Of a stretch of DNA of 64,000 nt, positions 10,084-64,000 are shown piece after piece. The stretch spans positions 68,264,001 to 68,328,000 of the forward strand of contig OZ076409.1 in NCBI GenBank assembly GCA_964187785.1, read 5' to 3'. Origin of the DNA: Amphiscolops sp. MND2022. Its lineage: Eukaryota. The notes under the pieces are model-generated. The model was not told where the DNA came from, did not search any database, and saw only the letters and a program-made list of their open reading frames with translations. How positions within the stretch are numbered: the stretch's first letter is position 1; every line of letters begins with the position of its first letter. The translations under genes and the position numbers were made by a program.

Positions 10084-10086
10084 TCT

Positions 10087-36827: not shown

Positions 36828-37772
36828 TGTCGAAGATGTTAAAGTTTTAATAATTTGAATTGAAGGAAGTAATTTTAAAGTAATGAACTTTGCAAAGTGC
36901 TCTCACAGTACGTCTGTATCTCACGGTAACAAATTTTTTCTCTCTCAATTTCTCTATCGCAATAGGACCTTCAAACTTGTTACTTGCGCTTGATTGTTTG
37001 CGTCTCTCCCACTCAACTCATTTTGGCTAACCTGCTTTTATCACCTCATGGTACATTACGGGACTGGTCACTTCAGTCGTCGCTAACTACCATTGTAATC
37101 TTTATATTTCTGTTGCCGTACCAGCATGTATCATTGATCTCATAACATCACAGCACGTACTAATTTACAACTAATGATCAAAAATGTCAAGCAAAATTAC
37201 TTGTAGTATTTTCCCAATTAACAATTTCAGCACACTAATCACAAATAACGACTAATGTTCAAAGTCATTGTTGGTAATTTTATACTAAAGGTCAACTAAA
37301 TGACTGTATATGAACTAAACGATGTTCTAGTAACTGAACTATCAATGATTTAGGTATGAAGAACTGCATGTACATGTGGGTAAAAAGTATGACTAGATAT
37401 GCTAGTCGTTTACCTTAATGAATAGTGTTTTGCGCTAAAAGGTTACTAAATTCGACTATATGTTTTCGTCGTTACTGTGAATCAGGTGAGTGGAGCGTAT
37501 TTATGTACTTTACAAAGCATGAGGTTAAAATGCACTGTAGATTTCTGTTTTAGCTGTTTTTGGTTTGTGGTTGGGACGACTAATAGTATTGGTCGTTGTT
37601 TAGCACATTTTTGTAATTCGTAGCACAGGTGAAATTGGAGTGACGACTGAACGATACAGTCGTCCATTATATGAGTTTACATGTATTCTAAATTATTTAT
37701 AGTTGAAAGGTTTGGGTAATTGATGATGACTTCATTCTTCAGTTGTTGTATTTCATACCATCCGGTATGACA
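36509..37772 (-). repeat. 5' LTR of Gypsy C (1264 bp)
   Basis: Direct repeat of 22457-23718, followed by TSD CCAAG. Confidence 0.95.
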
Positions 37773-41730: not shown

Positions 41731-42129
41731 CAATCAATACTTGCCTTGCCAGCATGATGGAAATATAATCTACTAAATATCTGTAATGTAAATAATATGT
41801 CTTATGTACTTAGATATGGGCAATATGATGTCATATAATAAGAGCCATGGTTGTGAGCAACCCTACGTTACTTGTACTTAATCCCCATTTCTCCCATGAG
41901 TTTGAGTTATATACATTTACTTAATACTGAGCGCTCTAGTTCCGGTGTCCGCATAAATGATCTTGCCAAAAATGGCCTTGAATGTGCTATATTTCATAAA
42001 TATTGGTTTGTCACGACAAGGGAGAGAAGTTTTCCGGCCAGACTGGACCAAGAGATATTGGAAGTAATGAGATGTATAGCTTCTACTAGCTCCCCGCCTC
42101 AGGACTTGTAGTCGTGACAACACTTTCAT

Positions 42130-42560
42130 AAAGTTCATCGTTAGTCCATCAGCGGATTCAACGATGAACCCAATTTGTTTTGAATGAAGTTCATCGCAAT
42201 TTCATCTCCGAAATTGCGGGTGAACAACGATTGGGACTTTAAACTGATTTTCATCACTTATCCATCAGCGGATTTTATGAAAATTGCTGTTTTATCTAAT
42301 GAGTTCATCCTAAACTCATCTCTGATTTTACTTTGCGCTAGATCTAGCAGTTTATCGAATGAATCCATCCTAAACTCATCGTCAATCTAGTTTGTGCTGG
42401 AAATTGGTAATTTATGGAGGAAGTTCATCCCTTTACCATCGCCATTTAAAATAGTGTTGATTTTTGGGCGAGAAAGACTACATTTCATCGCGTATCCGCC
42501 CTCAATTTCAGAATATCGATTTTATTGCTAGAATCAACTGGAAAACATCGTTTTCCTATC
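42130..42560. repeat. ~8 degenerate ~60-bp units each with CATC-N7-CATC, in the D 5' LTR
   Basis: ttcatcgttagtccatc, ttcatcgcaatttcatc, ttcatcacttatccatc, ttcatcctaaactcatc, tccatcctaaactcatc, ttcatccctttaccatc and two more degenerate units. Confidence 0.75.
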
Positions 42561-43225
42561 TCGCAATGCATTTTACCCTAATTTGAATTGAAATCAGTGT
42601 GCTATTGAATACTTTGAATTCATTTTCGTTGCTAGAGAGACCATTGTGGCATGTGCAGGTAATTATGACACTGTAAAGTGATGATTAACCACCATTTACA
42701 CATATGTAGATTGATCATGATGCGTGGCCACCCTGCGGCAGTTCACAACACCGGTCACGTGACTTACCAATTAGCACCAACCGGCAGTAGCCAATGAGAA
42801 GAGGCTGCTAAGAGATTTAGCGCCTTACCAGCCTGAAAAGACACGTGAACTGCTGTAGTTTAAGCCGCCATTAGAGATTACTGAGACCGAATTACGATAA
42901 GTTACCGTATAGTTTGATATTTCACGCCAGAAGTTTACTTGAAAAGTACATCCTTAATTCATCTCTGAAACCATAACACGACTACCTGAGTAATTTCGTT
43001 GAAAAATCTACATTACGATGAGAACCGGATGAACTTTCCTACCTACCTTTGCTAAATTCCTTCCAATCACTTGATACCTGTTTATTTGTACAACTGATCT
43101 CTAATTCATCTCAGTTCAAGATTAGTGAATTCGAGATCGCATAATCAGATATGAAACAGCAAAATACATCCAAATAACATCTCAGAAAATCCAGTCTTCA
43201 CTCACAAGTCTTTTCATTTATCTAC

Positions 43226-44740
43226 ATGAATCAGGACCAGGAAACTGTACTCAGAAGCGGTAGAGTCATTGATTCCTCATCAGAAATAGAATCTCCTGCA
43301 GATCCAAACATGGCCCAGGCAAACTCGAATGATTCTGACACCAACGACAGTTCAGATATCTCTTCCCAGTTATCTGAAATAAAAGAGAGTTATGAACGCC
43401 GAATTAACGAGTTGCATCAAGAGTTTAGTCAACTGAAGGACTTAATGATGGCGATTGTAAGCAAGAACAGTAGCGAATCTCAGCCATCTAGCTCGAAAGG
43501 TCCTTCAAAACCGGCCCAACAGCATGGGTTCGACATGGTGACAGGAGTTACAGAAACCCGCTCTACCCGCCCGACATCAAGCTTCACAAACTTCAGACGA
43601 TACCAAGATTATGACTCAGACGAAGAAGGCGAATCAACTCCCAGAAGCAACGAAGAACGGCTGCTAAACGCCATCGAGACGATCCCACAACGCATAAAGA
43701 GCACTACAACAAATACAAAACTACTGCCGACACACGTACCGAATTTCAGAGGACAAAAAGACAAATTCGTCGAATTTGAACACCTTCTCCTCAATCACCT
43801 CAGCCCGTTAGCCAATAAAATAACTGAGGAGAACAAGCTTCATATCTTTCAAAGCCTTTTGAGAGACGAAGCAATCGAGTATTGGCAATCGATCCAAATA
43901 ACGCCACTGACAACGCTGAAAGATGTGCTCGATCTGTTCAGAAAAGAATTCGCGAAAGAGGATCTTAAAGAAGTGGCTCGCTACAAGTGGGATCAAGCCC
44001 GTTACGATCCCACAACAGAGACTTTCAGCGACTTCCTCAAAACTTGAAAAAGACTGCGAAACAAGCCTTTGGGGATGAAGCGGATAAAATCATCAAGATG
44101 TTCTTGTTCGGCAAACTCCCAGTCGAAATACAACAAGAACTTACGATGGCCAACAAGGAGGAGAGCTCACCAGAAGAAATCAAGACATACTTGATGAGAA
44201 AGTACCAATACCAACAGTATGCAGCGCCGCCCACGACAATTCAACCATTCAACGCAGTCACCTCCTCTATTCCGACGAACAATGAAACAACCAAACCAAC
44301 AACAACGACGACAACACAACCAACTGAACGAAAACGATTCGAGGGACAATGCTTCTACTGCGGAAAGACAGGTCACCGCAAAACGGAATGTCGCGCCCGA
44401 CAACGTGACGAAGCAAATGGCATCAAGAAGGAAGATGCAATTCCGATGAAGAAAGCAACCGACCCAGACAAACCGAAGTACAATCCCAAGCTGGTTTGTC
44501 AGATTTGTGGATACACTGGCCACTCCGCAAGAGACTGCAGACGACGCATTCCCAAAGAAAGCAGCTCTGCATATGGCAAGATCCCTTATGAGACTTAGTC
44601 CCACAAATTCACAAGACGACAATAAAGCTAGAAGACAGGACTTAAAACGACAACAAAGACCAATGAACCCGATGCAAGCAGTTGCTGACGAAGAGGAACA
44701 GATAGGCTACTCTGATGAAGACATCAATCAGGGTTTTTGA
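43226..44740 (+). pseudogene. gag: gag of Gypsy D (two apparent frameshifts, ~44040 and ~44595)
   Basis: Homologous to C gag (FEHLL, FQSLLRD, YKWDQARYDPTTE). CCHC knuckles CFYCGKTGHRKTEC and CQICGYTGHSARDC. Confidence 0.88.
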
Positions 44741-45197
44741 TTCAACCACGATTTCCGCACGCTAGAAATACAACGCGCGACACACGACTTTCGACTCAAC
44801 CGACTACACGCAACCGTCCAATGAAGAAATTGCAGCCTTCACTGGACAAACGACCAAAAGCTGACGATGTCTATCAGCGAAGACTTTCCAACGATGAAAA
44901 AGCGATGGGAAATGCACGTCAACACAACGGCAGCCGGTTTTCCCCACTCGCTGAAATCAACGATGAACATGAGATGAACTGGCAACACAACACCATGAGG
45001 CAGGTGGATGATGCCAAAGAGATGGCTACCAACCATTTTCACCACGACTCGACTTCCCACACAACAAACAACAAACGGCTTAGTATTAAAAAACATGCAA
45101 CGCAAAATAGTATTAACGATTCAAAAGCTAAAAAACGTGCAACTGAAACAGAAATTCACGTTCTCAGTCCCACCTTACACTTAAATAAAAAGACAAA

Positions 45198-48100
45198 ATG
45201 CTTTATGTCCCTCTTCAGTTTGACAAATATGAAAAACACGCTCTTTTAGACACAGACGCAATTCAAAGCGCAATGTCTGAAGCAGAATTGCGAAAAATAA
45301 CCACGGCTCATCCAGAAGCCATCCTTCAAGAATTACCCCCACCGAACTTCAAAATCCAAATAGCGAATGGAAACTTAGTCCCAGTACGCAAACAAGTCTT
45401 ACTTAGATTTTATGTTGCCGGAAAAGTCATTGAAGAAACGTTCCTGATCCTTCCAACAATGGGAACAATTTTAATTGGAATGTCTTTTTTTGAAAAGTAC
45501 TCAGTTAATTTAGACATCAAGAACCATCTTGTCCACTTCCCCAAGCACATGATGTCCATGCAAGTTAGACAGCAAAAGAACAACAAATTTAAGACTGGTT
45601 TAATCAATTTGTGTTCCAGTAATAGAACAGTGATCCCTCCTCTACATCAAGTGATGATACAGGTCCACAGTGACGCGGACATCTCACTTACAACTGGTAC
45701 AGTTGAGGGTTCACCTGCCTTCATGCGAAAGACGTGTTTGCTTGTTTCCCCAGCTTTGGCTGACCTCGATGAAGGAAAGACGACAATACAGGTCACCAAT
45801 CCGAACAACCACACGTTCACACTTGATGCCAACACCACTCTGGCACACTTTCGCATACCGACACCACATCAGGCGGCCAACATCACGCCCATGCCAGTGG
45901 AACACTTGAACTTGATCACCAAGTACCCAGACGAGGCGGAAGCAGTGATCAACCAATTGTTCGTGAACCCTGACATGAAGTCAACAAAGTGGTACCCAAC
46001 TCCAGAGACGTGCAGTGACCCAAACAAACTCAATGCAATTGAGCGACGAATCTGTGATGAAATTCTGGCACTGCGAGAACTCGAGAAGCTTGACCCGTCC
46101 CAATCCGATGAACAACGGATGAACTTCCTGAAGAACTTCAACTGGGACGAATCACTTCTTACTCCGTCTCAACAGTTACAGGTAGAGGAGTTGCTGGTAA
46201 AGTACAACTCCATTTTTGCTAGACATCGTTTTGATATTAGCATGAACACTGATTTTAAAGTTAAGTTAACCCCACAACACCAAGAACCAGTGTATTCACA
46301 AAGTCTCCCGACTCCGACAAATTTGAAGGACGATTTGCTCGTGGAGTTAGCTCTAATGCAAGAGTACGGGATAATAACTACATTTCCTCATAGTAAATAC
46401 TCGTCTCCGATATTTGCTCAACGTAAACCTAATGGTAAATTGAGAATTTTAGTTGACTTGAGAAGAATAAACCACCTGATCAAAAACGACTACGGAGAGC
46501 ACAATCATCCCGTAACTACAATTGCAGACGCTGCCCAACACATGGCCGGGAAAAAGTACTTTTGCAAACTTGATTGTTCCCAGGCCTACCATTGCATCCC
46601 AATGGCCGACGAACAGTCAGTCCAACTGTTATCGTTTAAGTTTGGTTCTAGAACTTTTGCATTCTTACGTCTAGCACAAGGTCTTAATCGTTCTTTATCA
46701 GCATTCTCAAGTGTAGTCCGTGAGTATTTGGACCCCTTGGTCAAAGCGGATCGATGTGCTCAATATGTTGATGACATTGGAATTGCAGCACATACTCCTG
46801 AAGAACTGATTAATAACCTTGAACTTGTTTTCCAGCAATTGAACAAAGCCGGTCTTAAACTTAGCATGACTAAATGCGAATTTGGACAGAAGCAAATTGA
46901 GTATTTGGGCAAAACCATTTCTAGCACCGGTATTGCTCCCATTGAAAAACGCGTAACAGACTACTTGAGCAAGTTAAAACCCCCCAACTCAGTGAAATCG
47001 TTGCAACGTTACCTTGGTTTTGTAAACTTTTACAGATCATATATTCCCCGTCTAGCTGATAAAACTTGTTGTTTACAGGAATTGATCAAGAAAGACGTCC
47101 CTTTCAAGCTGAGCCAACAACATAAAGACGCTATTTTTGAAATTAACGAAAGTCTATTAAAAGCAACAAAAGTGTCTTTGAAACTGCCATTACCTGATAA
47201 ACAATTGGTAATCATGTGCGACGCCAGCGAACACGCTGCCGGCTATGTTTTGTTAATTGAGGATTATGCTGACCCGTCAGCCAAACAAACATACGCCCCC
47301 GTTGCCTTTGACTCTAAGAAATTTCAGGGAGGCCAGATGTCTCTAACAATGTATGCCAAGGAGTTTTTAGCGATGCATTTTGCATTTGATGAAATTGGCC
47401 ACATTTTGTGGGGTGCGAAAAAACCCATCATTGTTATGACCGACAACAAAGCCTTAACCAGATTTTTTCAGGCGAAGCACATCCCGCTCTCACTGTGGAA
47501 TTTTTGTGATCAAACGCTTCAGTTCAATTTTCTATTAGCACATGTACCAGGAGTTGAAAATCCCGCAGCGGATTACCTATCTCGCCTTGAGATTAGACCT
47601 GAAGATCGTGTCGATTTAAAATTGACTGATACTATTCCCATTCACAGAATCGAGATCGACATCGCTTCCAGAACACCGAAACAGGAGGAAGACGAGCCTG
47701 ACTACTTTCCCATAAGTGAACCACTCAGATGCAAACGCCAGAAGGATGTCAAAGAGATGAACTTGGCACTTGGCATTGATGTGGCTCATGACGATGGGAA
47801 AAGGATGAAGTTCACCAACTGTGAGAGAACAGCGGCCTCATATGAATTCGCGACCGACAATCATCTGACGTACCGCCTCACAGATGTGGACGAGCCAATA
47901 CAGCTCACGCAATTCATCAATAAAGTATCATTATCAAACCCGGTAATGAGTCAGGTTAGCCCCGCTGAGGGGATCGATCTAATTCAGATTCAAGAAACTA
48001 ACTGGGTCATTCAAAAAATGATTAGATTTTTGGAAGGTTCTGAAATTTTGCAACACCCAGTTAGTATGCAAGATCAATTTTTTCAAAAGTTGCACAAAAA

Positions 48101-49595
48101 TCGCAAACGCTTGCAAGTAGTGAACGGTGTCTTGTACAGGCAGTTTTATGATCACACGGGACTGGAGTCTCACAAACAGTTAGTCGTTCCTGAAGACTGT
48201 ATCTTGAAAATCATCAGGACTCTCCACAACAGCCCGGTACAAGGACACCCTGGTTTGAAGAAAATGTTGTACGAACTACGTAAAAGATACTACTCTCCAA
48301 ACTTAGCTTGTAAAGTTCAAAAGGTTCTAGACGGTTGTGAAAACTGCATGAAATCTAAAAGCGTAAAAGAACCGCAACTACGTCCACCGTTACAGAAAAT
48401 CTACGACCCGTGCGATGGACCAGAAGACCTGCTTGAAATAGATATTATTGGTCCACTCCCGGCGTCGAACGGTTTTACGCACATTCTGACGGCTGTTGAT
48501 GTTTTTTCACGCTACCTGTTCGCCGTTCCGCTGAAGAGACCTGACACGCACTCCGTAGTCAGAGGTTTACTGTCAATATTCACGAAACACGCTTATGTGC
48601 CAAAGCACATTCTGACGGACAAGGGCACGGCGTTTACGGCTGAACTTCTCTCTGAAATCGCGAAAACGGCTGATATTCACATCTCCCACGCCACGATAAA
48701 GCACGCACAGACAATAGGCATGGTCGAGAGAACGCACGCGAAACTGAAAAAGACCCTTAAAATTAGTGTAAACGCAGACAGACCACAATGGGACCGCTAT
48801 GTCGACATAGCAATCATGGCCCATAACACAACTTACCACGACTCACTGAAATGTTCACCAACTGAATATTTCCATGGCAGAATACCGTACAACCCACTAG
48901 ACCTGCAATTCCGAAACGCAAACAAGCCGGCTGAAACAAAGTGCAAGGACGTGAATGAAATTCTAGACAAAATGAACATCATCTTCAGAGACAATCTAGA
49001 CAACATCATCTCCGCCTATCACAAGTACAAAATGTACTATGATAGAAAAGCACGAGCGCAGCCACTGAAGGTGAATGAATTCGTGTTCCTACTCGACCCT
49101 AAGTACGACTCTCAGCAAAGCAAGGAAGAGTTTAAAACTTTCCATTGGAAAGGACCGTACAAGGTGATTAAAGTGCTATCTGATAGCAACTACATCATCC
49201 GCAAAGTAGGCACACATCAGACTCAGTGCGTACACAGAATGCGACTGAGGTTGTTCAAACCGGAATTTCCGATTGATGACATCAACGTGTCCAAACATCT
49301 TTACCCAGACACTGAAAGGGTTGAAGACACGGACATTTTCGACTCGAATATTCCGACGACCGACGAAGTAGATCAGAACGAGAATGACAATCTAGATCAA
49401 GACTTAGTCGAAGAAGAGCCTTCAGAAGAAATAGTTCCACAAGTACAAGGACGACACAGTCCACAAGCAATTCCACCAGCAATAACCACGAGAATAGACT
49501 ATCAGCAAGTAGAAACTGACCACAATGACTTTATACCACCTACAGTTAGATTTGGAACGCAAGAGGAAATTATTCTACCGCCCCCCCCGCGATGA
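45198..49595 (+). CDS. pol: pol of Gypsy D (PR-RT-RH-IN); N-terminal extension 44737-45249 and tail to 49830 lie in other frames
   Basis: 1465-aa ORF. Protease LLDTDAI (DTG mutated), RT QYVDDIG, RNase H CDASEH/ENPAADYLSR, integrase HHCC plus EIDIIG/TDKGT/GMVER, and WKGPY. Confidence 0.95.
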   Translation: MLYVPLQFDKYEKHALLDTDAIQSAMSEAELRKITTAHPEAILQELPPPNFKIQIANGNLVPVRKQVLLRFYVAGKVIEETFLILPTMGTILIGMSFFEKYSVNLDIKNHLVHFPKHMMSMQVRQQKNNKFKTGLINLCSSNRTVIPPLHQVMIQVHSDADISLTTGTVEGSPAFMRKTCLLVSPALADLDEGKTTIQVTNPNNHTFTLDANTTLAHFRIPTPHQAANITPMPVEHLNLITKYPDEAEAVINQLFVNPDMKSTKWYPTPETCSDPNKLNAIERRICDEILALRELEKLDPSQSDEQRMNFLKNFNWDESLLTPSQQLQVEELLVKYNSIFARHRFDISMNTDFKVKLTPQHQEPVYSQSLPTPTNLKDDLLVELALMQEYGIITTFPHSKYSSPIFAQRKPNGKLRILVDLRRINHLIKNDYGEHNHPVTTIADAAQHMAGKKYFCKLDCSQAYHCIPMADEQSVQLLSFKFGSRTFAFLRLAQGLNRSLSAFSSVVREYLDPLVKADRCAQYVDDIGIAAHTPEELINNLELVFQQLNKAGLKLSMTKCEFGQKQIEYLGKTISSTGIAPIEKRVTDYLSKLKPPNSVKSLQRYLGFVNFYRSYIPRLADKTCCLQELIKKDVPFKLSQQHKDAIFEINESLLKATKVSLKLPLPDKQLVIMCDASEHAAGYVLLIEDYADPSAKQTYAPVAFDSKKFQGGQMSLTMYAKEFLAMHFAFDEIGHILWGAKKPIIVMTDNKALTRFFQAKHIPLSLWNFCDQTLQFNFLLAHVPGVENPAADYLSRLEIRPEDRVDLKLTDTIPIHRIEIDIASRTPKQEEDEPDYFPISEPLRCKRQKDVKEMNLALGIDVAHDDGKRMKFTNCERTAASYEFATDNHLTYRLTDVDEPIQLTQFINKVSLSNPVMSQVSPAEGIDLIQIQETNWVIQKMIRFLEGSEILQHPVSMQDQFFQKLHKNRKRLQVVNGVLYRQFYDHTGLESHKQLVVPEDCILKIIRTLHNSPVQGHPGLKKMLYELRKRYYSPNLACKVQKVLDGCENCMKSKSVKEPQLRPPLQKIYDPCDGPEDLLEIDIIGPLPASNGFTHILTAVDVFSRYLFAVPLKRPDTHSVVRGLLSIFTKHAYVPKHILTDKGTAFTAELLSEIAKTADIHISHATIKHAQTIGMVERTHAKLKKTLKISVNADRPQWDRYVDIAIMAHNTTYHDSLKCSPTEYFHGRIPYNPLDLQFRNANKPAETKCKDVNEILDKMNIIFRDNLDNIISAYHKYKMYYDRKARAQPLKVNEFVFLLDPKYDSQQSKEEFKTFHWKGPYKVIKVLSDSNYIIRKVGTHQTQCVHRMRLRLFKPEFPIDDINVSKHLYPDTERVEDTDIFDSNIPTTDEVDQNENDNLDQDLVEEEPSEEIVPQVQGRHSPQAIPPAITTRIDYQQVETDHNDFIPPTVRFGTQEEIILPPPPR

Positions 49596-49859
49596 AAGCA
49601 GGATAAGATTACCTCTGAGAGACGAACAACACGAAAATCAATCACAACAGATAAACACGCAAACTGAAGATGAGGAAAGGATGAGTTCTAGACCGTCTAG
49701 AAACAATCAGAGTAGGTACAGGTTACGCGAGAACCCTACACCGAAAACATATCCTGATTTCCTCATTCATGAGATTACTTCAGCTAGAAACGCACTGAGA
49801 AAGACCAACAAAGTAAACGTAACGATTTAGACAAGAACAACGACATTTCAAAACACACG

Positions 49860-50545
49860 ATGTGTTAAAGATGAACAACTCACAAAAACGAACAATTTAC
49901 ATGCAATTTCAAGTTAAAATGAACATGAAGATGTAAAATGGATGAACAGTCACTAAAAATCACATGAAAAACGCATAAAAACAAAACGCGATGTAAAACG
50001 GATGAATATCAACTAAAATTTCATATAAAACAGACGACAAAAATCACGAGATGAAAAAAGGATGAATTCGCATGAAAATTTACATCATACAAACAAGAGA
50101 TGAAAAAGCGATGAATTTAACCAAAACTAGCTTACAAACATGCAATAATTAATAGCGATGTATTCGAGATGGAAAACACCATCAGAATGCGAACAAAGCA
50201 ACAGTCATCCTATCATAATACTCTAGCTCGGCTAGAGGAGGAAATAGCGATGAATTCGACCAACAAACTCACTGAATACATGAACACAACCGATAAGATG
50301 TATTTGTGATGGAAACTACCATCAACTCAATAATGAATTCATCGTCAGACCAAGCACAATACTCTAGCTCGGCTAGAGGATGGCTTAGCGATGAACTTAG
50401 TCTAAATCAACTTAACAAATGAAAATTAATTTGAAAGATGAATTTGCGATGGGAAACACAATCAACATGGCAATACATTCATCGTTTACTACCACAATAC
50501 TCTCGCTCGGCTAGAGGATGAGAAAACGATGAATTTAATCCATCG
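49860..50545. repeat. GATG-N7-GATG ~60-bp units followed by three ~140-bp units containing a hairpin
   Basis: Motif pairs at ~49930, 49990, 50050 and 50099. CTCTAGC-TCG-GCTAGAG at 50221, 50362 and (variant) 50500. Confidence 0.75.
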
Positions 50546-50917
50546 AAGACCCGAAATCCATCAAAACGGACAACCCGATACATGTAAATACAAACATACA
50601 AGAAAACTCGATGACGTAACGCCGGTAAACAGACAATTCCAAATTACATGTACCTAAATAAATAGCACATCAATGACACACACATGTATCATCCTATAAC
50701 GAAGGATATAAAATATGCAATTCACATACAATCCAAACACACCTAGACAACAATTGACGAACCAAACAATCGAAAATACATGAAGCCTACTAATTTACAT
50801 ACAAATTATAAGAATTGACGAAACAACCACATGACGAATAAAGGAGTGAGCCCCCCCGGTAAACATCAGTTCATAACAAGTAAAATACCCCTATCGAAAA
50901 GCCAAAAACATTCCTTC

Positions 50918-51080
50918 GTGCTGGCTGGCATTTCTCTGAAAAGAGTGCTGGTTAGTTGAGGCGGAGAGCTCACAACCATATTCGGATGAAACTTGCTGCG
51001 TTGGTTATCCAGCGGCTAGTGGATTCTCAGTTAGTTTTGTAGGGGCTTTGTGACGACAAAGCCCTGTCCAAATTGACGAA
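50918..51080 (+). ncRNA. Candidate structured cis-RNA element downstream of pol in Gypsy D
   Basis: Homologue of 29591-29737. Hairpins include CTCT-GAAA-AGAG and GGGCTTTGT-GACG-ACAAAGCCC. G-U pairs favour the genomic-RNA strand. Confidence 0.6.
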
Positions 51081-52137
51081 CAAAATCAAAAAATAATCAA
51101 CATGCAAATAATGGGGAGACCCATTAATACATTGCGAAGAACACCAAGAATTTCAAAACGACATATAAAGTTAAAAGTATGATGAAAATCATACCGACGC
51201 GCTATAAAATGAATAAAACACTTGCACAACATACGAAAATCACATTTCCGAAAACGTAATAATCACATAGCCACGAAAAAGCGCACAAAAACAAAATTTC
51301 AAACGTAAGATGAAAAGAAGATGAACTAGACTCAACAACGTGTAAAAGCTTTAGAATTCAAACTCGCTATGAAAAGACGATGAATTATGCTAACAAAAAA
51401 CATGTAACAACATGCAATGTCTCTTACATAACGAACGATGTAAAAAAAGATGAGAAAACAGTTTTCGCGACGTCGCTCGGTCGACTGAGGAAAACACGAT
51501 AAAAATGAGATGAAAAATCAATAGCGGAACGCTGATATACTACCTGCACGTACATGAGATGTAACAACGATGAACACCGTGAGAAAAGCCATCTGAGACT
51601 TCCGACAACGAAAAAGCGATGTAAAAACGATGACAAATGAACCTTGAAAACATTGACGGACACGACCTATTAGCCAAAAATGTTAATTCGCAAACCTCTC
51701 CTATCTTTTGTCGCTATCACTATCAACTCACGAGAAAAACAACTATCGGGCACCAAATATTTAATACTGTAAATAGACATCGCTACCGACCTTTCCGACG
51801 TAGCGGGGATTTCCCGCTTCATCTTTCTTTTCACTCGAGAGTCATACTCAAAGTTGGTTACCCATTAAAATGCTAACAATGCTGCCAAATAATACAAATG
51901 ATGCAAATAATACAAATGATGCAAGGTTTTAAAACTAAAGTTTACGAAAAACTAATTGCCGATCTCAGGACTCATTGCACGCTCTCCTTCTCGATCATAT
52001 CCGAGCTGCTCATGAATATGCTGTCGATAATCCTCATTCGCTACAACACCAATGTCGTCCCAAAGTAGCTCCTCAGTAAATCCCGACAAATCCACAATGC
52101 GTCCAATTGCCTCAGTCACTTCATCAAGTAGTGGACC

Positions 52138-53068
52138 TGTTGGCGCCAGTCATCAGAAGGCAAAGAAACTCGATTCAGAACATGCTGGTTGAGAAACAAG
52201 ACTTAAACTCCAAAAAACTTGAAGAAAGTTGATGAAAATTTGAAGAAAAGTCGATCATCAATTTTCTGCAACCCCCCCCAAATGGGTTTTCTCCAAGACT
52301 ATTAATCATAGAGCCATGAAACTTGGCACACATACGCAAGTACCTAACACAAACACACCGGCCAAGTTTCAAGGTCATCCACCCATTATAACCACCTTTA
52401 CCCCTCACATGTGTGATATTCAAGGTCAATGAGACAAAAATGTAAAATTTTGTTATTTACCCATATGACCCACATTAGAATGTAACTCTGTTGCAATTGA
52501 TGATATGTACATAGTGTAAACATGCTTTAGAGCCCACCTAACCAACATGCCAAAACCACCACATAGTTTGTTTACTTAGCCAATAACTTTAATAATTCAC
52601 TTAAATGTCATTTTATTTATACCACATATTTCAACTGATATTTGTTTTATATTTACTGTAGAATTGTAAACCAGATTTATACCATAATTAGATAGAGATT
52701 TTTTCCACTGAATAGCTATAGTCAAGTTGGGTCTCAGGACCGCGAGACTAATTAATCTACTTCTCAATCTTCACAACTTTTCGCTAGAGTCAGAGCGACT
52801 AAGTAGCTACTCTCATAGTTGGAGAGCCGGAGCGCGTGAAGATACAGTGAGGGAAGTGTGTGCAGGATCACATCGGATCCAATTCAGTGCAAAAAGGAAT
52901 AGCAGGAGATTCCACGGGTCTTATCGGACCCACCAGCCAAAAGATACAGTCCTTTAAAACAAGAAAATCAGGAATTGTTTAGTAACGGTCCACAGTACTA
53001 AGCAACGGATCAGGGCGGCGTAAAGCTTGTCAAGCCTCAGCGCAGGATAAGGGCAAGCAGCCGTTACA
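52138..53068 (+). repeat. 5' LTR of BEL element (931 bp)
   Basis: TG...CA; direct repeat of 57754-58670. Confidence 0.93.
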
Positions 53069-53192
53069 TTTGGTCCGCCGACCCGGACAACTCGTTGGTG
53101 GACGACCCGGACTAGAAGAAGACGACTCGTTGGTGTACAACTGAGAAGATTGCCCAGGAAGAACAAGTGTCTGATTCTTGGAGTCTCTGACT

Positions 53193-53413
53193 TTGTGTCT
53201 CTGGGAGATTGGCCTACTGTGTCTCTGGGAGATTGGGCTACTGTGTCTCTGGGAGATTGGGCTACTGTGTCTCTGGGAGATTGGGCTATTGTGTCTCTGG
53301 GAGATTGGGCTATTGTGTCTCTGGGAGATTGAGCTACTGTGTGTCTGGGAGATTGGGCTATTGTGTCTCTTGGATATTGGGCTATCGTGTCTCTGGGAGA
53401 TTGGGCTATCGTG
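53193..53413. repeat. Minisatellite, 9 x 24 bp (CTGTGTCTCTGGGAGATTGGGCTA), in the BEL 5' UTR
   Basis: Head-to-tail units without spacers; an 8-aa repeat appears in the ORF track. Confidence 0.95.
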
Positions 53414-53448
53414 ACTTTGGGAACTGAGTTCAATCGACAAGAGAAGAG

Positions 53449-56400
53449 ATGGCAGAACCAAAACGGTTCGATATCAACAAAATCGAAAACTTCCTGAAGA
53501 ACTCTGCTGACAAAGCCCAAACTTTGAGTTATTGGAATGCAGCTGTCGAGCACGGCAAAACGATCAAAGAAATTGATGAGAACCTAGCTAGCAATGTTGA
53601 CGACAAGCAGATAGCAGATTTACTGCTAAGACGAACAGATGCCATAAACAGGAGAGATCGGCTCATTATGGCAGTCGAAAATGCAATCAAAGTCAAGTAC
53701 CAACCGCTGATTCCCGAAATGTTCTCAGCAGTGAACAGAGCAATGCAGAGCCGATGGGTTGAGTTACAGCAGCAAAGCTCTAGCGTTGGAAGGGTAAAAA
53801 CACTGATGTCAGCCTTGCAAGATGGAAATCAGATACTAAATTACTTGGATCTTGACGAAAACAAACGTGCTATTGATAGACTAATGGTTAGCAACGAAAA
53901 GTTGCGAGAAGATTCAATCGCAAATGGCAATGACGCCAACGAAGAAGATTATGTTGCAGCATGTCAAGAATTGCTCCAGAAAAGGTCTGATATCAAAACA
54001 AAAATTGAAACTCTGCTGAAGTCAGGAAACGAGGGAGCCATTTTGCGAAGTCTTGAAGACGCTGAACAAAGACTGGCAGACGCTCGTGTAAACTCAGCAG
54101 CAGACAAATCCAGTAAAAATGGTACCTCACCACAAAAGGAACCACAATCAACCAATGAGCAAAAAGGACACGATGATGGTCATAACGCGAATGACAGACA
54201 AGAGCGAAGAAATAGAGCTAGATCACTGCAAATTGAAGCATTGAGCATGCATTCGCGAAGTGACAAAACCAAAAGCAACAAGACGTCTGTGATTTCAAAA
54301 ACATCAAGCGCAAGAAGAGTTCTACACTTGGAGCTAAAAGCTCTGAAAGAGCAAGAAGAACTGCAATCCCGCCTGGAGAAACTGGGAAGAGAAACAAAAC
54401 AAAAGGAAATGGAAATAGCAGACTTGCAAGGTGAGGTGGCCCGCAAGGTCAGAATTGCAGAAAAGGAAATAGAACTGGCGAAATTTTCAAGTAGTTGTGG
54501 CACCAGCTTGCGAAGTATTCCACCAGTCGAGTCACCAGACGACAATTTGACGAAAGTCTCAGATTGGATGGACAAGACAGAAGAAGCTGAAAACCTGGCA
54601 TCGACGACTAACGTGCCATCTGTATACCAGCAAACGTCCGTCTCAGCACCAGTAAGAACAGTACAATCGATGCATGAAGGACAATGCTCTGCGCTAGTGA
54701 GGGACTTGAATCCTCCAGTGAAACCGACTATATCCACCGAAGCCGCTAGTCGAGGTATTGGAAAGCACAGAACAAAGACTGTCATAGATGCTGTCAGTCA
54801 AAGAGCAACAGCACAACCAGAAGTGAAATTCGCCCCATCGAAGCCGTCGATGACTCTCAGTGCAGACCCGAATCGGTTACCGCCTACGTTTGGAGGCACC
54901 CAAAGTGGTGCATTTCAAGTACCACAGCTTGCGAACACACAAAAACAGTATTTGCCCGGTCAAGAACCAAACTTTGCCTCAAATGCAAAAGATGACTACT
55001 ACATCAGATCTAGCTTGCCAAAATTGAAGTTAGCAGAATTCTCAGGTGACCCATTGGAGTGGCCAGAGTGGTCACAACTATTCCAAGCAACCGTCCATGC
55101 AGCGAACATAGACGACAGTGTAAAAATGAACCACCTGAAAACAATGGTCACGGGCAAAGCGAAAGAGGCTATTGCTGGTCTGGGGTACACTGCTGAGATG
55201 TACAATGTGGCGTGGAACGTTCTAGTTCGAAATTTTGGAAAACCTCAAATGGTTGTGAACGCCCAGTTGAAGCGAATCTATTCCTTCCCTCCGATGAAAC
55301 CTTATGATGGAACCGCATTGATCAAGTTTGCAAGAATAGTGTCGAGTTGCGTGAATGTTCTGACACAATTCAATTACGTGGGAGACCTAAACTCAGAAGG
55401 AGTTCTGGGCAGTGCCACAAGGAAGTTAACACTGGACATGAAAACGAAGTGGCTAACTTATGTCAAGCAAATGAACCTGTATCAACCTGGACTCGCTGTG
55501 TTCAGTGAATGGCTCAATGATATAGCAGATGTTCAAGATGAATTGCTATTTTAATCGAATCCAAAAGCTGATTGCGCGAAGACGAGCTACAAGGAAAAGG
55601 CCGAAGGCTCTACGTTTGCAACATCAGCCACAAACACAGCAAATGACAATTCGAAAACTCAGCGAGAGTGTGTGTTGAAAGATGGTCAACATCCGATATG
55701 GAAATGTGAGAAATTCAAGAAGATGAACGTGGAAGAAAGAGGACAAAGGGCGAAAGAACTGAAGCTGTGCTTCAAATGCTTGTCAGACGCACATCAGATG
55801 AGAAATTGCTCTGGTAGACTCTGCGACGTCAATGGTTGCGGAAAACCTCATCACCGATTGCTACACCGACCTTACAAGAACGAGGAACAGATGCAAAATG
55901 TTGAAAATGTCGATGAGGTCTCAAACCTGTCCTCAATGAGAAGCAGTGGAGTGCTTCCAGTCATTCCTGTAACGATAGGGAGTGGGAGCAAAACTCTGAA
56001 AACGTTCGCTTTGTGTGACTCTGGAGCAAGCCTGTCCTTCGTGGACGAGAGCCTGATGAAAACGCTAAATCTGACTGGACAACCAGTGAATTTGAATGTT
56101 GCAGGGATTCATGGTGCGTCAGATATTAGTAGCAAACGACTAAGGGTCAGGATTGGCGATCAACAAGGAAAAGTCAAAGAAGATATCATGACCTATAGTC
56201 ATCCCGACGTAAATGCAGGAAATCGAACGTACAACCTCAAGAAATTGAAGGAAGAATATCCACACCTGTCAGTGCTGAAAGATTCTACCAACAACCTGAA
56301 AGATGTAAAAGTCATCTTGGGACAAGATTGTTACCACTTGCATAGAGCCATTGGGTTTAGAAAATTTGGAAAGTCAAAACCTTGGGCCGTATTGACAAAA

Positions 56401-57808
56401 TTGGGGTGGATGCTTAGTGGACCCTTGTCTCAACAAGAAACTGCGAAGTTCGCCACTGAAAGTTTGGTTTTTGCAGATGTGGATCCAATGGTGGATCAGA
56501 TGAAAACTCGGTCGAGCATGGAAGTGTATACTTCCCACTGCAGCGTATCCGAAGTGTCCAAGGAAAATACGGAGAACTCACCAGACATATTCGTTGTAGA
56601 AAGAAACTGGAAGGAAGTCAGTACTAAACCCCTCCTTTTGGAGATCAAGCAAGTCTGGCGAGACGAAATGTACCTAGCTGTGAGTGACCATATAATTGTC
56701 GAACAAGACGAAAACATGGGTTTCTCAATTGTAGAAGAAAAGACGAACATGAAAGTTTTGCAATTAAATCAAACCTCCGAACCCTGGAAGACTTTACTGT
56801 GATGCTTGATTTGGTGAAACAGAATATGGATGTCGCCTCTGTGCGACAGCATGTGGAAGAAACGCAATCAACTCAAAAGCAAGCAATAAAGCTCGCTGTC
56901 AACACTCTAACACATGAAGAGGGAAGAAAATGTTCTCAAATGGACATAAAAATTGAATTCGTAAAAGAGTGTCATGTCGAACTTCAGGAATATCCAAGAG
57001 GAAAAACGATATTTCGAAGACACTCCAATAATTTGTTGAAACGCAACCAACCGTCTGAAGAGAACACAAGTGATCGAACAAAAGCCGTAAAGATGTCACT
57101 TTGGAGAAAACATGATGTTGAGCTGAAAGAAAAACCACTGGACAAAATTATTCCAAACGACAGAGAAAATTGTAACAACTGGTTAGGTAATGGAAACTCA
57201 GGAATGGATGCAGTGGCACAAGCTAACCCTATTGTGTACACTCAACTGAGCAGTGGTCACGGCAAGCAATTCGAGAAACGAGCTTGGAAATTTGAACATA
57301 GCTCATACCTATTAGATGGAATGGTCGAAAGTGTTCAATTGACAACTGGCATCCTATATGCAAAGATTGTGATTGATGAATTCGAGATGAAATATCGCTG
57401 ATGGAAACGCAATTAGTTTCTTCAAAAGCACAAACAACAACAAGTTTGGAAAATGGGCCTGTCATAGGGCCGGCTGTATCATGGGAAGAAATGATTATGC
57501 AACTAGAATTCTTTGGAAAATGGAATAAAGAAGTTAGACAACTTTGAGTCAATGATTTGGTTTGGATTGTAGATGACAATGTGGAAAGAGCTCGCTACAA
57601 GATGGCTAAAGTGATAGAAGTCTTTCATGGAAGCGATGGGCGAATGAGATCAGCGCTGGTGAAAACTGAAGATGGAAAACTCAAAAGACCAGTAGTGAAA
57701 CTGGCACCCATGTTCTACGAAAGTGTTTTTCGGGAGAAAAACAGGGCCGGCAAAGTTGGCGCCAGTCATCAGAAGGCAAAGAAACTCGATTCAGAACATG
57801 CTGGTTGA
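53449..57808 (+). pseudogene. BEL gag-protease ORF with eroded pol remnant
   Basis: BEL gag motif PKLKLAEFSGDPLEWPEW; stop at 55552; zinc knuckles (CFKCLSDAHQMRNC, CGKPHHRLLH); protease LCDSGAS...LGWMLSGP; integrase C-terminal tail VWIVDD...GSDGRMRSALVK..KRPVVKL. No YVDD-type RT motif. Confidence 0.88.
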
Positions 57809-58670
57809 GAAACAAGACTTAAACTCCAAAAAACTTAGATGAAAATTTGAAGAAAAGTCGATCATCAATTTTCTGCAAACCCCCCCCCAAATGGGTTTTC
57901 TCCAAGACTATTATTCATAGAGCCATGAAACTTGGCACACATACGCAAGTACCTAACACAAACACACCGGCCAAGTTTCAAGGTCATCCACCCTTTATAA
58001 CCCCCTTTACCCCTCACATGTGTGATATTCAAGGTCATTGAGACAAAAATGTAAACTTTGTTATTTACCCATATGACCCACATTAGAATGTAACTCTGTT
58101 GATGATATTTACATAGTGTAAACATGCTTTGGAGCCCAGGTAACCAACATTCCAAAACCACCACATAGTTTGTTTACTTAGCCAATAACTTTAATAATTC
58201 ACTTAAAGGTCATTTTATTTATACCACATATTTCAACTGATATTTGTTTTATATTTACTGTAGAATTGTAAACCAGATTTATACCATAATTAGATAGAGA
58301 TTTTCTCCACTGAATAGCTATAGTCAAGTTGGGTCTCAGGACCGCGAGACTAATTAATCTACTTCTCAATCTTCACAACTTTTCGCTAGAGTCAGAGCGA
58401 CTAAGTAGCTACTCTCATAGTTGGAGAGCCGGAGCCCGTGAAGATACAGTGAGGGAAGTGTGTGCAGGATCACATCGGATCCAATTCAGTGCAAAAAGGA
58501 ATCGCAGGAGATTCCACGGGTCCCATCGGACCCACCAGCCAAAAGATACAGTCCTTTAAAACAAGAAAATCAGGAATTGTTTAGTAACGGTCCACAGTAC
58601 TAAGCAACGGATCAGGGCGGCGTAAAGCTTGTCAAGCCTCAGCGCAGGATAAGGGCAAGCAGCCGTTACA
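57754..58670 (+). repeat. 3' LTR of BEL element (917 bp, first T changed to A)
   Basis: Direct repeat of 52138-53068, followed by TSD GGACC. Confidence 0.93.
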
Positions 58671-61600
58671 GGACCCCCAACACTCTCGTACACACGTAGT
58701 TGATGCGCTTTCAAATAACCTAGGACCGTTGCGCACACACTGCTGGTCACATCGCCGGACAAGCGCCCCACTTCAACACACTTAGTCTCCAACGGAAACT
58801 GCGGACTCTCACATAAACATAATAGGAACCGCAGAAATCGCACTGATGCTTCACTGTCACAGGCTCGTAGGAGGTCGACTTCAGAACCAGCTGTAGATAC
58901 CACACTAGGACCCACTAGAGCACGATAGTTCGACACAAATTTTGTCACACTCCGATCCATACGTCTGCGTTCTGCTGAGGTAACTCGGTTCAGTTCTAAC
59001 TCAGTAAAGTGTCTAGCTTCATTCAAGATGAGATCTTCCTCTGCAATGAACAGAACAGCTGGACAACAAATACCCAAATAGAAGGTCACTTCCTCTTTCA
59101 AACCTTTCACTGTTAGTACTTCCTCCACAACTGTCAACAAGAATTTCTGCACCAGAACCAGATCTTCTTCATATTGAGTAGAATTTGCGTAGTATTCAGA
59201 GTGCACAGAGAGTACTCCTCGCAACAATTCCATTTTGGCTTCACTCAACTCCAAATCAGACACGGTGATGCCCAAACAGGCACGCACATTCGTCACTGGG
59301 GGGAGGTTAGCTTCGTCGACAACATGAACCAACAGAGCTCGTAAAAAGCATGCACTCTCGTATGCCCAATGGCACCCACAAACAGGACTATCGCTGAAGC
59401 TCCATTGATATGAAGTCACTACTAAAACATCACCAATCACGCATAATTGACCATTTGTCCTAAAATCAACAATCCAGCCCCCCCCCCACCAAGTTTAGAA
59501 AAAATCACCCAAATAATCCTTACGAATGAGAACCAAACTAAACAAACTTACGAGCACGGAACACAAGATTTAAAGCATGCAGTCGCACAGGCACACTTGG
59601 ATCGCCGCACAAAACATAATCCAGTGGCTCCGCCGCACCCGCGGCATCAGGCGTCCTGAGCAGTCCACACACGAATAGCCAGTTTTCGTGTAGTTCGGCA
59701 AGAACATCAGGCACATCCCACAACGAAACTTCGCCTTCCAAGACCGACTACAAAACAAACCACAAGATGAAACAACCTTCTACTACACGCAACCCTCTCC
59801 CACAGGAACCATATGAATCGAGTACAATCATTACCATGCATGACCAAAAACGTAAATGGAAAATGCCTATTATACATACCCGCAACAGTTTTGGGCAAGA
59901 CAGCAACATCTCATCCTTCATGAAGGGTTTAAGACGAGACTGCAGGTGATTGAGGATGACATGCACATCAGTACCCCCCAAAACCCGGACACTGGCAGTG
60001 ATCACCACTCTGTTGATGTCCGCCAGTCGCAAAGGTACCAGACTGATTGTTCCAAGTCAAGCACTGGAAGTCAGAGCCCAATTGAGTCGTGGGAACAATT
60101 CGCAATTTAACCCCAGAGGACAGATTTCACCAACAGCACCACAGAGCAGATTGACAATCCATGTAACTAGTCGCCCCTCCCAGTCCTGTGCATAACTGAA
60201 CGAGAAAACGATGTAGTTGGTAATTCCTTCAGCAGTACATATAATCACACGCCCAACGATTCTGTCCGCTACTATCCCAATGGAGAAACTGCTGAACGCG
60301 GACTCAAACCACAGGGTAATCAACCGACGCATTACATAGGGCCACAAACCCAGAATGAACACTCTCTAAACGAACCACATAATATTGTACATACAAAACG
60401 AGTACTCACAACCCGAAGATCATACTTAGACTACAACAGTCAAAATACAAAATTCATTTTATCCTAATCACGCACCTAACAAACACATCATAAAATATAG
60501 CAAATATGATTACCAAAACATCTTCGATTCGGCACTTTAGTCCAAACAGAGTCACATGCTGCGCATCGGTAGCCACCATCAATTCCCATAGCCCACACAC
60601 GCTCGCTAGATCGCAATCCCGATACAAAGCGTCAATAGCTAGGCAGAGGAACAATCGCACAGTACGTTCTAGGCCGTCCGTCTCGTCACGCTCCAGATCG
60701 TCCCAGACAGACCTTCCATCCAGTTCTAACTGAAAAACTTCCGCCGGAGTAGCATCGGGACACCTTTCCACAACAGGCACGGTCACGCCTTCTAAGAGAG
60801 CAGCCTGATTAACACTGGCAGTCGTCGACATCAAATTGCCATCGCGATCGCGCAACGCAAGCCCTCGTCTGAGTCGTACGAGACAGTCGAGACGATGATG
60901 CTGTACTCCACGACAATGTTCCATGAAAGTCGTGATCCCACGACTTGCGACTTTCACATCTCGCTTGCACAGCACACACCGCACGTACGACGCCCGAGAT
61001 TGATGATTCTTCGCATAGCCTAATGCAAGGCCGCAATAGGCATGGTTAAACCAACTGAGAGCAATCCGCTTCTGCCCTGTTTTCAAAACATCATACAAAT
61101 AGAACCATTACTTAACCCCCTACCACCGAAAATCAAAAATTATAACCCAAAACAAGCTCTTACACATCCTTCAAAAACTGAAAAAAGAAAAAACAACCGC
61201 AAACTTCAAAAGGCTCACCCGGAGTGATGAAAAAATGATGTAAAATAATATTTTCATCGGGAAATATAAGCGAAAAACGACGAAAAAACGATAGGATGAA
61301 AAAAAAAGATGTATAAAGCGACTTTTGAACCAAAATTGAGGCATTTCAGAGCAAAAACGATTCAAGGATGAAAAGGAGATGTAAACTGAAAAGAAATGAC
61401 GAAGAGATAAACTAAAACCCAAACGAGAAAATTCCAAGGATGTAAAAGAGATGGAATATAGTAAAAATGGCTAAAATGTGAAAAGGAAGAAAACACCACG
61501 CTTGAAAACTTTGAAAGATGAGAAAATGATGAAAAGTGAAAACTTGAACAAACCATCTGACGAAAGTTCTAAAACGATGGGAAATAGATGGAAGGACTGA

Positions 61601-64000
61601 ATATCTGGACTGCTAATGAAAGTGAAAAGAAAAATGCGAAAGATGAATGGACGAAAATTGTAAAGCAGATAATTCACAGGTCTTAAAGCTGTTTAGGTAA
61701 CCTGGCAAACGAGAGGCGATGGGCTCATCATCAGAGTCATTGAGGCTGGCCCCTATTGGCGAAGTCTCCTCTGGACCAGGTTCTGGCGCAGGACCAGCGT
61801 CGCCCGACTCGGAACGAGCAGCAAGAGAACCGTCAACAGTGAAGTCATCAGGAGGGTCTACAGATGACTCGAGGCTGGTTAGAGAAGCTGGTCCTGAAGC
61901 AACTATATCAATGTCCGGCACAGCATCTTCGGGCGCAGAGGCAACAGGCGTGGGCGCAGCTGGGGGATCATACACTGTACCGACGTCGCAGTAACTTACG
62001 ACCGCCTGCACAGTTTTGTCAGCATTGGTGATCCCAGTGTCAGTTGCCACCTCCACGTACTCCACTTCGTCACGAGTAGAAGTACCCCGACAGAGAGTGA
62101 CCCGAACAGTTGGAGGACTGGCAATAGTAAAGGATCGTCTCAAAACTGGCGATAACATAGACACTGGAGCCCGCATAACGGGAGAGCTTGTACCAGTCGG
62201 ACACAGATCTTGGAAGAACGAGGAAAGATCAAGCTGGGGAGGTCCTCCCTGAGTGCTGACATCAACACTGTCACCACCGAAATCACCGGTCCCAATTCCA
62301 ACGGAGTGTGTGATGGGACGTGGTCTTGGTGCATGAATCGGCGTGGGACCTGTAAATAGAAAACCAGTAATCAAACGACGAAGATTGGAGAAGAAAGTGC
62401 GCGTAAGCCGCGCGAAGAAGGAAGATCGAAGAGAATTCATCCCAAATCCATCTTCAAAAAATGGAATTTGCGATGAATCAACCAAGGACTGCGAGTACAT
62501 ACAGCACATCTAAAAGTCATCTCGAGAATGAATTACATGGCTAATCGACCGCAAAAGGCACTACATGAAGATGAGATGGAAACATCGGAATTACATCGGA
62601 GTGCCCGGACGACGCCCTACTAGAAGAGAAAATTAGAAAAGGAGTCAACTCACTGAATTGCTGTATACTGTCTTGCAGCATGTCCCGCAAGTAACGGTCG
62701 TACCACCCGAGGTAATACTTCCGAGGGAGGCATACCAAGGAAAGTGGTCTAAAACACCAAATGGAAGGAGTCAGCGTCTGGTTGGATTAGGAAGGAGGAA
62801 CGAGAGGATTGTGGACTGAATTGAAAAATCTGGAAGGACAGTACTTACACTGCGGCAGATACGGGACATTAATTGGCTGACCAATCTGTTGATCAGGCTC
62901 AATCTGGGGTTCAGCAATAGCTGGCTGGACTGCTGGAGCTTCTTGCGGCGGCACAGTTTGAAGGGTTGTTAACTCAGATACGATGCCAACAGAATGGACT
63001 GAGTCAGCTGAAGCAAGATGTGTTTTCAGTACCTAGTTGTCCCTAGTCCGTTTGTGAAAGAAAAGGAAAATAGTGCACTTACTTTCTGTGGCCTCGGTCT
63101 CTGGTAACGAGTAGACTGAATGGATGTCTGACATCTTGAAGAAAATTGCAATCAACAATCTGAAAAGGAAGGGAAGAGAGTGAAGGAAGGAACGAAATCG
63201 AAGAACTCAGGACAGGAATTTGATCAGTAATTAAATGGCCTGATCAACCATGATTACGAGGATACAAATTCACGAGAAAAATATCAAAGAGCGCGAATGC
63301 AGCTTGAATGCCAGGGTAAATCAAATACTTGAATTTAAACGATGGAAAATCGATGAAAAACTCTCCGATTTCAAAGACTGACTACACTCTTTCTTCCCAG
63401 TTACAACCAGTTCAAAAACTTCTCAGAAAAATGGATCGTCCACTCTTAGGACTTGACTACAAAAGCTTCAAGTATTTGATTTGTTGACAGCTGCCAGTCT
63501 CAGATCGATGTCGATGAAGTTGAGCGGAAAACGCGCAAAGGAAATCGCGGCGATTTTCAAACCGACTAAACGAAAGACGGTTAACGGATCGGATGAGAAT
63601 GTTATTGACAATCGGTTGGATTTCCTCCAGTCAGAAAATTCAGTCCTCAGCCAATCAAGACAAGCAGTGGTTGCTATGGCGACGATTCATCTTTTCCTCA
63701 TCGCTGAGAAGTCAGGCAGCGGAAGCGACAACGGCGGTTGCTATGACAACAATTCATCTCTTTCCTATCGCGGGAATTTGACAACAGAGCAGCGGCGCCA
63801 GTCTATGCTAAGTCAACATCGATGCCTCGCTGAGTAAACAATTTATCGTCCATTCATCTCGAGTAGTTTCTAGCAGACAATTGGCGGCGCCACTTTACTG
63901 CCATATTGTCAATGAAGCTAACAGTAGTATTTACTCAGCGTAGGCGGTCCGAAGAAAAATTGAGATTTTCACCGAATTTATCAGCAGACCGATCTCCCAT

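Follow-up and report, generated by a model that had tools for sequence, protein, structure and literature searches.

A covariation-supported RNA motif 3' of pol in a clade of Ty3/gypsy LTR retrotransposons of Amphiscolops sp.

To our knowledge, cis-acting RNA structures have been mapped in few LTR retrotransposons (Ty1, Ty3, musD, IAP and Cer1). Known RNA transport elements sit 3' of pol (PMC4588558, PMC5767303), and the RSV stability element (RSE) guards long 3' UTRs (PMC5580461). Hairpins capped by GACG are presented as dimerisation and packaging motifs of gammaretroviruses, alpharetroviruses and maedi-visna virus, and they permit heterodimers between different genomes (PMC516450, PMC5874298). 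In plant Retand/Tat elements, the stretch from pol to the 3' LTR has been described as long and as carrying antisense ORFs as well as tandem repeats, and the phrase 'secondary structure' is absent from the main text of that paper (PMC11963269). The elements studied here have a parallel layout, but belong to a different lineage with different proteins. Post-pol RNA elements and GACG hairpins are already known separately; the sequence of our motif, its triple-G.A hairpin beside a GACG hairpin and its placement 3' of pol were not matched. No description of the element or of the motif was found in the literature searched, from which subscription papers and supplements were excluded.

The window, by which we mean the whole 64,000-nt stretch of DNA that was analysed, holds two Ty3/gypsy elements, C and D, each with one copy of a motif of ~160 nt 3' of pol (Table 1). 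All of the short words that an earlier note on this DNA had listed were found in both elements, at the places and in the order it gave. The joint word pattern occurred at 2 places in the window and at none in 100 shuffles. A covariance model, whose training rows included the D copy itself and close relatives of C, returned exactly the C and D places (150 and 117 bits), and the next match scored 12 bits. The spacers of C and D had been called otherwise unalignable by eye. In BLAST comparisons of the 2.6 kb after pol of D, J, H, F and C, the motif was the sole block common to the D/J side and the C/F/H side. Pairwise identity over the 3' half of the motif was 0.59-0.84, versus about 0.3-0.5 in most flank bins. 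The motif lies 470-1500 nt from the end of pol. It folds, from 5' to 3', into SL1, a hairpin rich in G.U pairs; SL2, a hairpin in which three G.A/A.G mismatches are stacked; a near-invariant linker; and SL3, a hairpin whose tetraloop is GACG.

Table 1. Window coordinates of elements C and D and of the parts of their motif copies.
Feature	Position	Strand	Description
Host element D	41747..64000	+	Ty3/gypsy LTR retrotransposon
D 5' LTR	41747-43535	+	
D PBS	43536	+	
D pol frame	45189-49595	+	gag present as fragments
D motif	50918-51081	+	
D motif words	50918; 50985; 51021-51026	+	GTGCTGG; GATGAA; GGATTC
D motif words	51030-51041; 51052-51055	+	GTTAGTTTTGTA; GACG loop on 9-bp stem
D SL1	50918..50956	+	GCTGG/TTAGT base, CTGGCAT/GTGCTGG upper helix, CTCT-GAAA-AGAG cap; MFE fold
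D SL2	50985..51026	+	G-C, A-U, U.U (C-G in family H), G.A, A.G, A.G, then variable helix of 6-9 bp
D linker	51030..51041	+	near-invariant GUUAGUUUUG(UA)
D SL3	51043..51064	+	9-bp stem, GACG tetraloop 51052-51055
D 3' tail	51065..51081	+	CC-AA..GAAC; possible linker partner
Small hairpin	51110..51125	+	ATGGG-GNNA-CCCAT, downstream of motif D
Nested DUF1759-gag element inside D	LTRs 52139-53068 and 57755-58670		
D antisense ORFs	58556-62509	-	
D 3' LTR	about 64312-66457		just past window end
Host element C	22457..37773	-	Ty3/gypsy LTR retrotransposon
C LTRs	36509-37773 and 22457-23719	-	97% alike
C pol	last frame ending at 30484	-	several broken frames
C motif	29737-29590	-	
C motif words	29737; 29676; 29652-29647	-	GTGCTGG; GATGAA; GGATTC
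C motif words	29643-29632; 29620-29617	-	linker; GACG
C SL1	29689..29737	-	long hairpin in which about two of every three pairs are G.U; loop UCGUUAAAAAG
C SL2, short form	29647..29676	-	GGUUGC/GCAACU, loop UCUUUA, same triple G.A core
C linker	29632..29643	-	GUUAGUUUUGUA
C SL3	29607..29629	-	GACG loop 29620-29617
C antisense ORF	28244-28948	+	

Both elements encode RT, RNase H and integrase, and their pol DNA is 65-68% alike. Both window copies are damaged: the pol of C is split over several frames, and the pol frame of D stops short of the protein end of its family, D being also interrupted by the nested element. CCHC zinc knuckles were found in the gag of D. The nested element (window 52139-58670) carries a DUF1759 gag and a protease, has no RT match, and contains short tandem repeats at 53193-53422; a similar nested insertion was seen in another D-family copy. 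Gypsy and DUF1759-type elements side by side would fit an animal host. The antisense ORFs of the window copies had no Pfam match. ARAGORN called a tRNA-Ser within the pol of C (33117-33201), which is probably spurious.

The earlier note had read the variable but still pairing stems as a functional RNA fold on the genomic strand. Compensatory changes in SL2 and SL3 bore this out in a tree-aware test of 15 SL2/SL3 pairs on a tree of 34 copies. Joint changes were placed on 10.1 branches, versus 1.6 ± 1.2 when partners were re-dealt on the same tree (0 of 20000 permutations reached as high a value), and changes ending in a standard pair numbered 8.9 versus 0.5. The alignment used for cell counts (A4) holds 34 real copies spanning the subfamilies. 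In A4, which omits near-duplicates and decayed copies (including L200, L206 and L211 of alignment A3, with broken GACG) and so overstates conservation, 88.8% of the cells were paired, versus 35-50% for slid partners. Double-sided cell changes numbered 29 versus 9.6 in shuffles of A4; the number of pairs with a double-sided change was marginal only (8 versus 5.3, 28 of 500 shuffles). The pair cells comprised 404 Watson-Crick, 47 G.U and 5 A.C combinations. It is the sense strand that folds, since G.U outnumbers A.C 47 to 5. SL2 pairs were read from fixed anchors, which avoids the misalignment of the length-variable SL2 by MAFFT; when given the MAFFT alignment, in which length variation puts SL2 out of register, RNAalifold found SL3 and the apex of SL1 and missed SL2. 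Folding z-scores of single sequences were modest across representatives (-0.1 to -3.8), with -3.4 for D (186 nt) and -1.6 for C (171 nt). We consider it very probable that the motif is a working RNA structure of the element.

The stem beneath GACG changes in concert (U-A/C-G, G-C/C-G, U-A/G.U/C-G), and the pairing probability of SL3 was 0.95-0.99 in 14 of 15 representatives. Over all collected copies, rather than A4, the loop was GACG in 169 of 183 places, and the closing pair was U-A in 96 and C-G in 76 of 182. Ten of the 14 exceptions to GACG were of the CpG-decay type (GACA 8, GATA 1, GATG 1). The upper helix of SL2 varies in length and sequence (GCUUGC/GCAAGU, GGUUGC/GCAACU, GCUUAC/GUAAGU, GCUGUG/CACAGU). 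The third pair of SL2, below the mismatches, was U.U in 157 and C-G in 16 of 180 places, both sides switching together, probably in a single event. In D, the register of SL2 is better drawn as RCTTGCTGC/GCGGCTAGT plus TGG/CCA than as the proposed TTGCTG/CAGCGG. The GACG loop, the linker and the G.A core are the invariant parts of the motif.

The families were gathered in the 1.07-Gb assembly by DNA, pattern and protein searches. The motif has hundreds of candidate places in this genome and belongs to at least seven families (C, D, E, F, H, I and J), all in a clade whose RT is at least 72% identical to that of D. DNA searches gave 705 candidates for D, 502 for C, 962 for E, 798 for H and 336 for I, numbers that overlap between queries and are not copy numbers; 40 of each were scored, so that our counts are lower bounds. 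With C and D set aside, a pattern search turned up 16 places, of which 14 proved to be true copies, and protein searches brought in more families. The collection comprised at least 212 matches at about 185 distinct places, duplicates having been removed by sequence, of which a few may remain.

The motif belongs to the element. Among 164 loci found via the motif, 156 had an integrase upstream in sense, an antisense ORF downstream, or both within 1.5 kb; of the other 8, 5 had element-like DNA flanks and 3 showed no context evidence in the 1.5-kb flanks. This association speaks against a captured SINE or ncRNA fragment, or a DNA-level site without an RNA role in the element. Such an origin could be suspected from the A-rich tail after the motif, from the varying distance to pol, and from the motif start in C and F, which resembles a pol III A box. 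However, the A-box likeness is absent in D and J, no tRNA was called at the motif, the compensatory changes arose between element families, and the excess of G.U over A.C points to RNA. We regard this origin as largely refuted and its remaining probability as very low.

Rfam scans of the window (E<=1), of two related loci and of the D motif alone (E<=10) gave no credible match, in agreement with the note, which could name no known family. The note had also likened the core of SL2 to a tandem G-A motif of the kink-turn or SECIS type. The tandem mismatches stood and both named folds fell. The core 5'-GAUGAA/GGAU-3' gives U.U, G.A and A.G in a row as in the kink-turn and SECIS cores, and GA/GA was juxtaposed in 33-34 of 34 A4 rows, with the geometry of the pairs presumed from the sequence. 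It differs from the kink-turn in being a symmetric loop with three purine mismatches, paired flanks and no 3-nt bulge: the would-be bulge faces UUC/GUC and pairs, with G-C and A-U in 171 copies, and in a C helix the second pair would be C.U in nearly all copies and the first G.G in 15. A SECIS-type UGAN/NGAN quartet is present in most families (U.U, G.A, A.G, A.G; C-G replaces U.U in H). SECIS elements are defined by an upper helix of about 11-13 bp with an apical AA. Here the helix has 6 bp with a UCUUUA loop in C, E and F, the other loops are UUAU, GAAA and GGGUAAU, and apical AA is lacking. Recoding of an upstream in-frame UGA was also rejected, as the open pol frame of F ends in TAG, as does that of H, and Rfam gave no SECIS match. 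NMR work from the Turner lab reportedly described a 5'GGA/3'AAG triple sheared GA internal loop, which is exactly the 3x3 loop of the motif; as a building block it is silent on function.

Other retroelements, the retrozymes, carry ribozymes. The size of the motif and its invariant single-stranded core would suit a new self-cleaving ribozyme, but the Rfam ribozymes did not match, and the three hairpins stand in series, neither a junction nor a pseudoknot being supported. Cleavage at this place, past pol and ahead of the 3' LTR, would also be expected to separate the genome from the PPT and the R region. We hold a ribozyme to be very improbable. Some further readings were rejected by eye. A multi-way junction, in which the 5' end would pair with the linker to close it, fits fewer families than the serial-hairpin model; a 3' splice site at TTTTGTAG lacks the AG in C, E and F; and a branch point ACUAAC on the antisense strand is followed by no shared acceptor.

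SL1 is less certain than SL2 and SL3. The 12-pair register of D recurs in family J with two double-sided changes. In C, E, F and H the fold is ambiguous: an 18-pair version, mostly G.U, competes with other folds, and variation is mainly one-sided. In the window copy of C, a private C>A change breaks the sixth pair. Three details that had been proposed did not survive comparison. The TGGT...ACCA stem, thought to be conserved, is absent from families E, F, H and J; the C hairpin has a loop of about 10 nt instead of an AAAA tetraloop; and the CCAUAC/GUAUGG pairing of C is disrupted in those C subfamilies that carry GTATAG or GAATGG, and would be nested rather than a pseudoknot. The linker GUUAGUUUUG is identical over 10 nt in 150 of 183 places. 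It may pair loosely with the 3' tail, as modelled in the MFE folds, in which the pairing is present with a register that differs between families. In C, E, F, H and I, the SL1 loop GUCGUCAAAA is complementary to SL3, and the complement is absent in D and J. It could act as a switch, under either a packaging or an export role.

Elements without the motif bear on its role. Subfamily G has an RT 94-96% like that of family F and a 1.4-kb 3' region without antisense ORFs. The covariance model found no motif in three 10-kb stretches of G, and the F-type control was found at 144 bits; no GACG hairpin of at least 5 bp was found in the two full copies scanned. Its loci (L183/L259, L184/L260, L250-L254) represent about five copies that are separate insertions, and two full copies have distinct target-site duplications and 98% identical LTRs. 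Subfamily G is an internal-deletion derivative and a natural control. The motif is not required in cis, because G inserted repeatedly without it. Motif carriers are far more numerous than G. The sister clade (about 60% RT identity) is abundant and has the same antisense-ORF layout and a long 3' region; no motif was found there in 5 ten-kb stretches by covariance model or in 24 shorter loci. In one copy of the sister clade, a 5-bp GACG hairpin closed by A-U lies ahead of the 3' LTR (L143:5228-5242); this hairpin was not found in L144 and is at chance level.

The main rival to the role that we prefer below is a signal that exports the unspliced genomic RNA from the nucleus or stabilises it, comparable to the musD MTE or the RSE; we consider it possible but rather unlikely. 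The triple G.A loop and GUUAGUUUUG would then bind a host protein, which would either export the RNA or protect the 5-6 kb 3' UTR from decay, with GACG making an internal tertiary contact. The position past pol agrees with that of known transport elements, the invariant unpaired parts suit protein binding, and the SL1 loop-SL3 complement resembles the kissing contact of the MTE. As in the musD MTE, IAP RTE and type-D CTE, several hairpins make up a cis element 3' of pol in an LTR element that lacks env, possibly with a loop-loop contact. The motif differs in being much smaller than the MTE (about 400 nt), in lying 5-6 kb from the 3' LTR, in belonging to an unrelated retroelement lineage, and in showing no likeness to CTE, RTE or MTE in sequence or Rfam (E up to 1 and 10). 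In subfamily G the motif disappeared along with the long 3' region, as an export or stability role would suggest, but one deletion also explains this joint loss. The long 3' region of the sister clade without a motif argues against such a role, as do the lack of the SL1-SL3 complement in D and J and the start of the RSE directly at the stop codon.

The motif and the antisense ORFs co-occur in the clade and were lost together in G. This would also be expected of a platform for localisation or regulation that is linked to the antisense block, for example a Rev/RRE-like binding site for an antisense-encoded protein or a germline or stem-cell localisation signal. GUUAGU in the motif would fit the Musashi-type word (G/A)U1-3AGU. 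However, the sister clade has antisense ORFs without the motif, and the pol-proximal antisense protein is weakly like hAT transposase C-termini (atlas 0.81, a lead only), not like an RNA-binding protein. We consider this platform quite improbable. Throughout the gypsy group, also in the sister clade that lacks the motif, 3-4 antisense ORFs lie downstream of pol and ahead of the 3' LTR (L143-L150), and one of these ORFs has a C2H2/BED-like pattern by eye.

We tentatively prefer another role, plausible though somewhat short of probable: an accessory dimerisation and packaging signal acting by GACG loop-loop kissing. The most specific clue is the GACG loop, which stays invariant above a stem that compensates freely, despite CpG decay of the loop in old copies; GACG hairpins serve this role in retroviruses; the gag of D has CCHC zinc knuckles; and the families look mosaic, as recombination of heterodimers would make them. 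The invariant loop would make a kissing contact with its counterpart on another copy of the genome, the CG of each loop forming two base pairs as in gammaretroviral SL-C/SL-D. The weakly paired, G.U-rich SL1, with several near-equal folds, may offer guanosines to a zinc-knuckle Gag or act as a switch, and the triple G.A loop with GUUAGUUUUG could be a surface on which proteins dock. Such a signal would make the 14-kb RNA more efficient without being required.

Judged from their sequences, the families look like recombinants around the motif. Family H combines an F-like RT and spacer with a D-like long SL2, L205 has a D-type SL1 joined to an H-type SL2, and family I has a C-type SL1 joined to a J-type SL2. 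In L157:1500-2180, an E-type copy, a 3'-half-only copy and an F-type copy stand in tandem within 700 nt. This tandem-copy subfamily was also seen in L163, L168, L169 and L182, with the F-type member seen in L157; its 3'-half-only copy has its own compensated SL3. Any conserved block serving as a crossover site would also give mosaicism, which weakens the argument for dimerisation.

The gammaretroviral Psi SL-C/SL-D (also RD-114 and the maedi-visna DIS) likewise has a stable stem with an invariant GACG in the genomic RNA of an LTR retroelement, and in gammaretroviral Psi the GACG hairpin likewise stands beside weakly paired U/G-rich helices. In contrast to those hairpins, which lie in the 5' leader, often come as two together and close with A-U, the motif has a single one 3' of pol, closing with U-A or C-G and joined to a triple-G.A hairpin, with no Rfam match. 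No GACG hairpin of at least 5 bp was found in the 5' regions of the elements scanned. A palindromic DIS shared by all families was rejected by eye: GAGCUC in D, GUGCAU in E and UGUACA in F have no counterpart at that place in C and J. The absence of the motif from the five copies of G and from the sister clade also counts against a dimerisation and packaging role, as do the modest single-sequence z-scores and the failure of RNAalifold to recover SL2. A more specific version, that a GACG kissing signal, embedded in a modular RNA of three hairpins, arose in this animal-type clade convergently with retroviruses and at the opposite genome end, with heterodimers driving module swapping and an SL1 switch masking the loop, seems to us unlikely.

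Outside this genome no homologue was found, which is a weak negative, as the searches covered viral and metagenome contigs and pol patterns rather than eukaryotic assemblies: the core pattern gave 8 viral-contig matches, none with flanking hairpins, which we treated as chance; the full pattern gave 0 matches in metagenome contigs; and the pol alignment of the clade gave 591 pattern matches, with no confirmed relative. The pol family P0049 of the protein database is absent from this genome, with 48% as the best value here. The reach so far is one clade in one genome, which limits the weight of the finding accordingly. Within it, the motif offers a compact, covariation-supported RNA family with natural variants and natural deletion lines. 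If GACG does kiss, it would be a convergent or ancient link to retroviral dimerisation; if the motif is an export or stability signal, it would show how RNA stays usable in elements that carry an antisense gene block of 5-6 kb.

Other hairpins were seen around the motif. Arrays of CGATG/CATCG hairpins lie between pol and the motif at window 50099-50540, where D has 3 repeats, each about 139 nt long. The spacer of family J (L261/L262) has about 9 such hairpins; they are rare in C and absent in F, and in 10 of 13 examined the antisense strand gave the better fold, by at least a small margin. An upstream CTAAT island is found in some families only. A strong inverted-repeat hairpin at window 13168-13297, part of which matches 39336-39403, gave only weak miRNA-family matches in Rfam, and a tandem duplication of 1484 nt (99.5%) lies at the start of another gypsy element (window 9840-12804). 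The ATGGG-GNNA-CCCAT hairpin also occurs 180-280 nt past the motif in F/E subfamilies. It was seen downstream of the motif at loci L099, L126, L157 and L205, with loops GAGA, GTAA, GAAA, GCAA, GCGA and also GATA. In C subfamilies it is inverted, about 770 nt downstream of the motif. It is possibly a DNA site because of this reversal, and may be an element separate from the motif.
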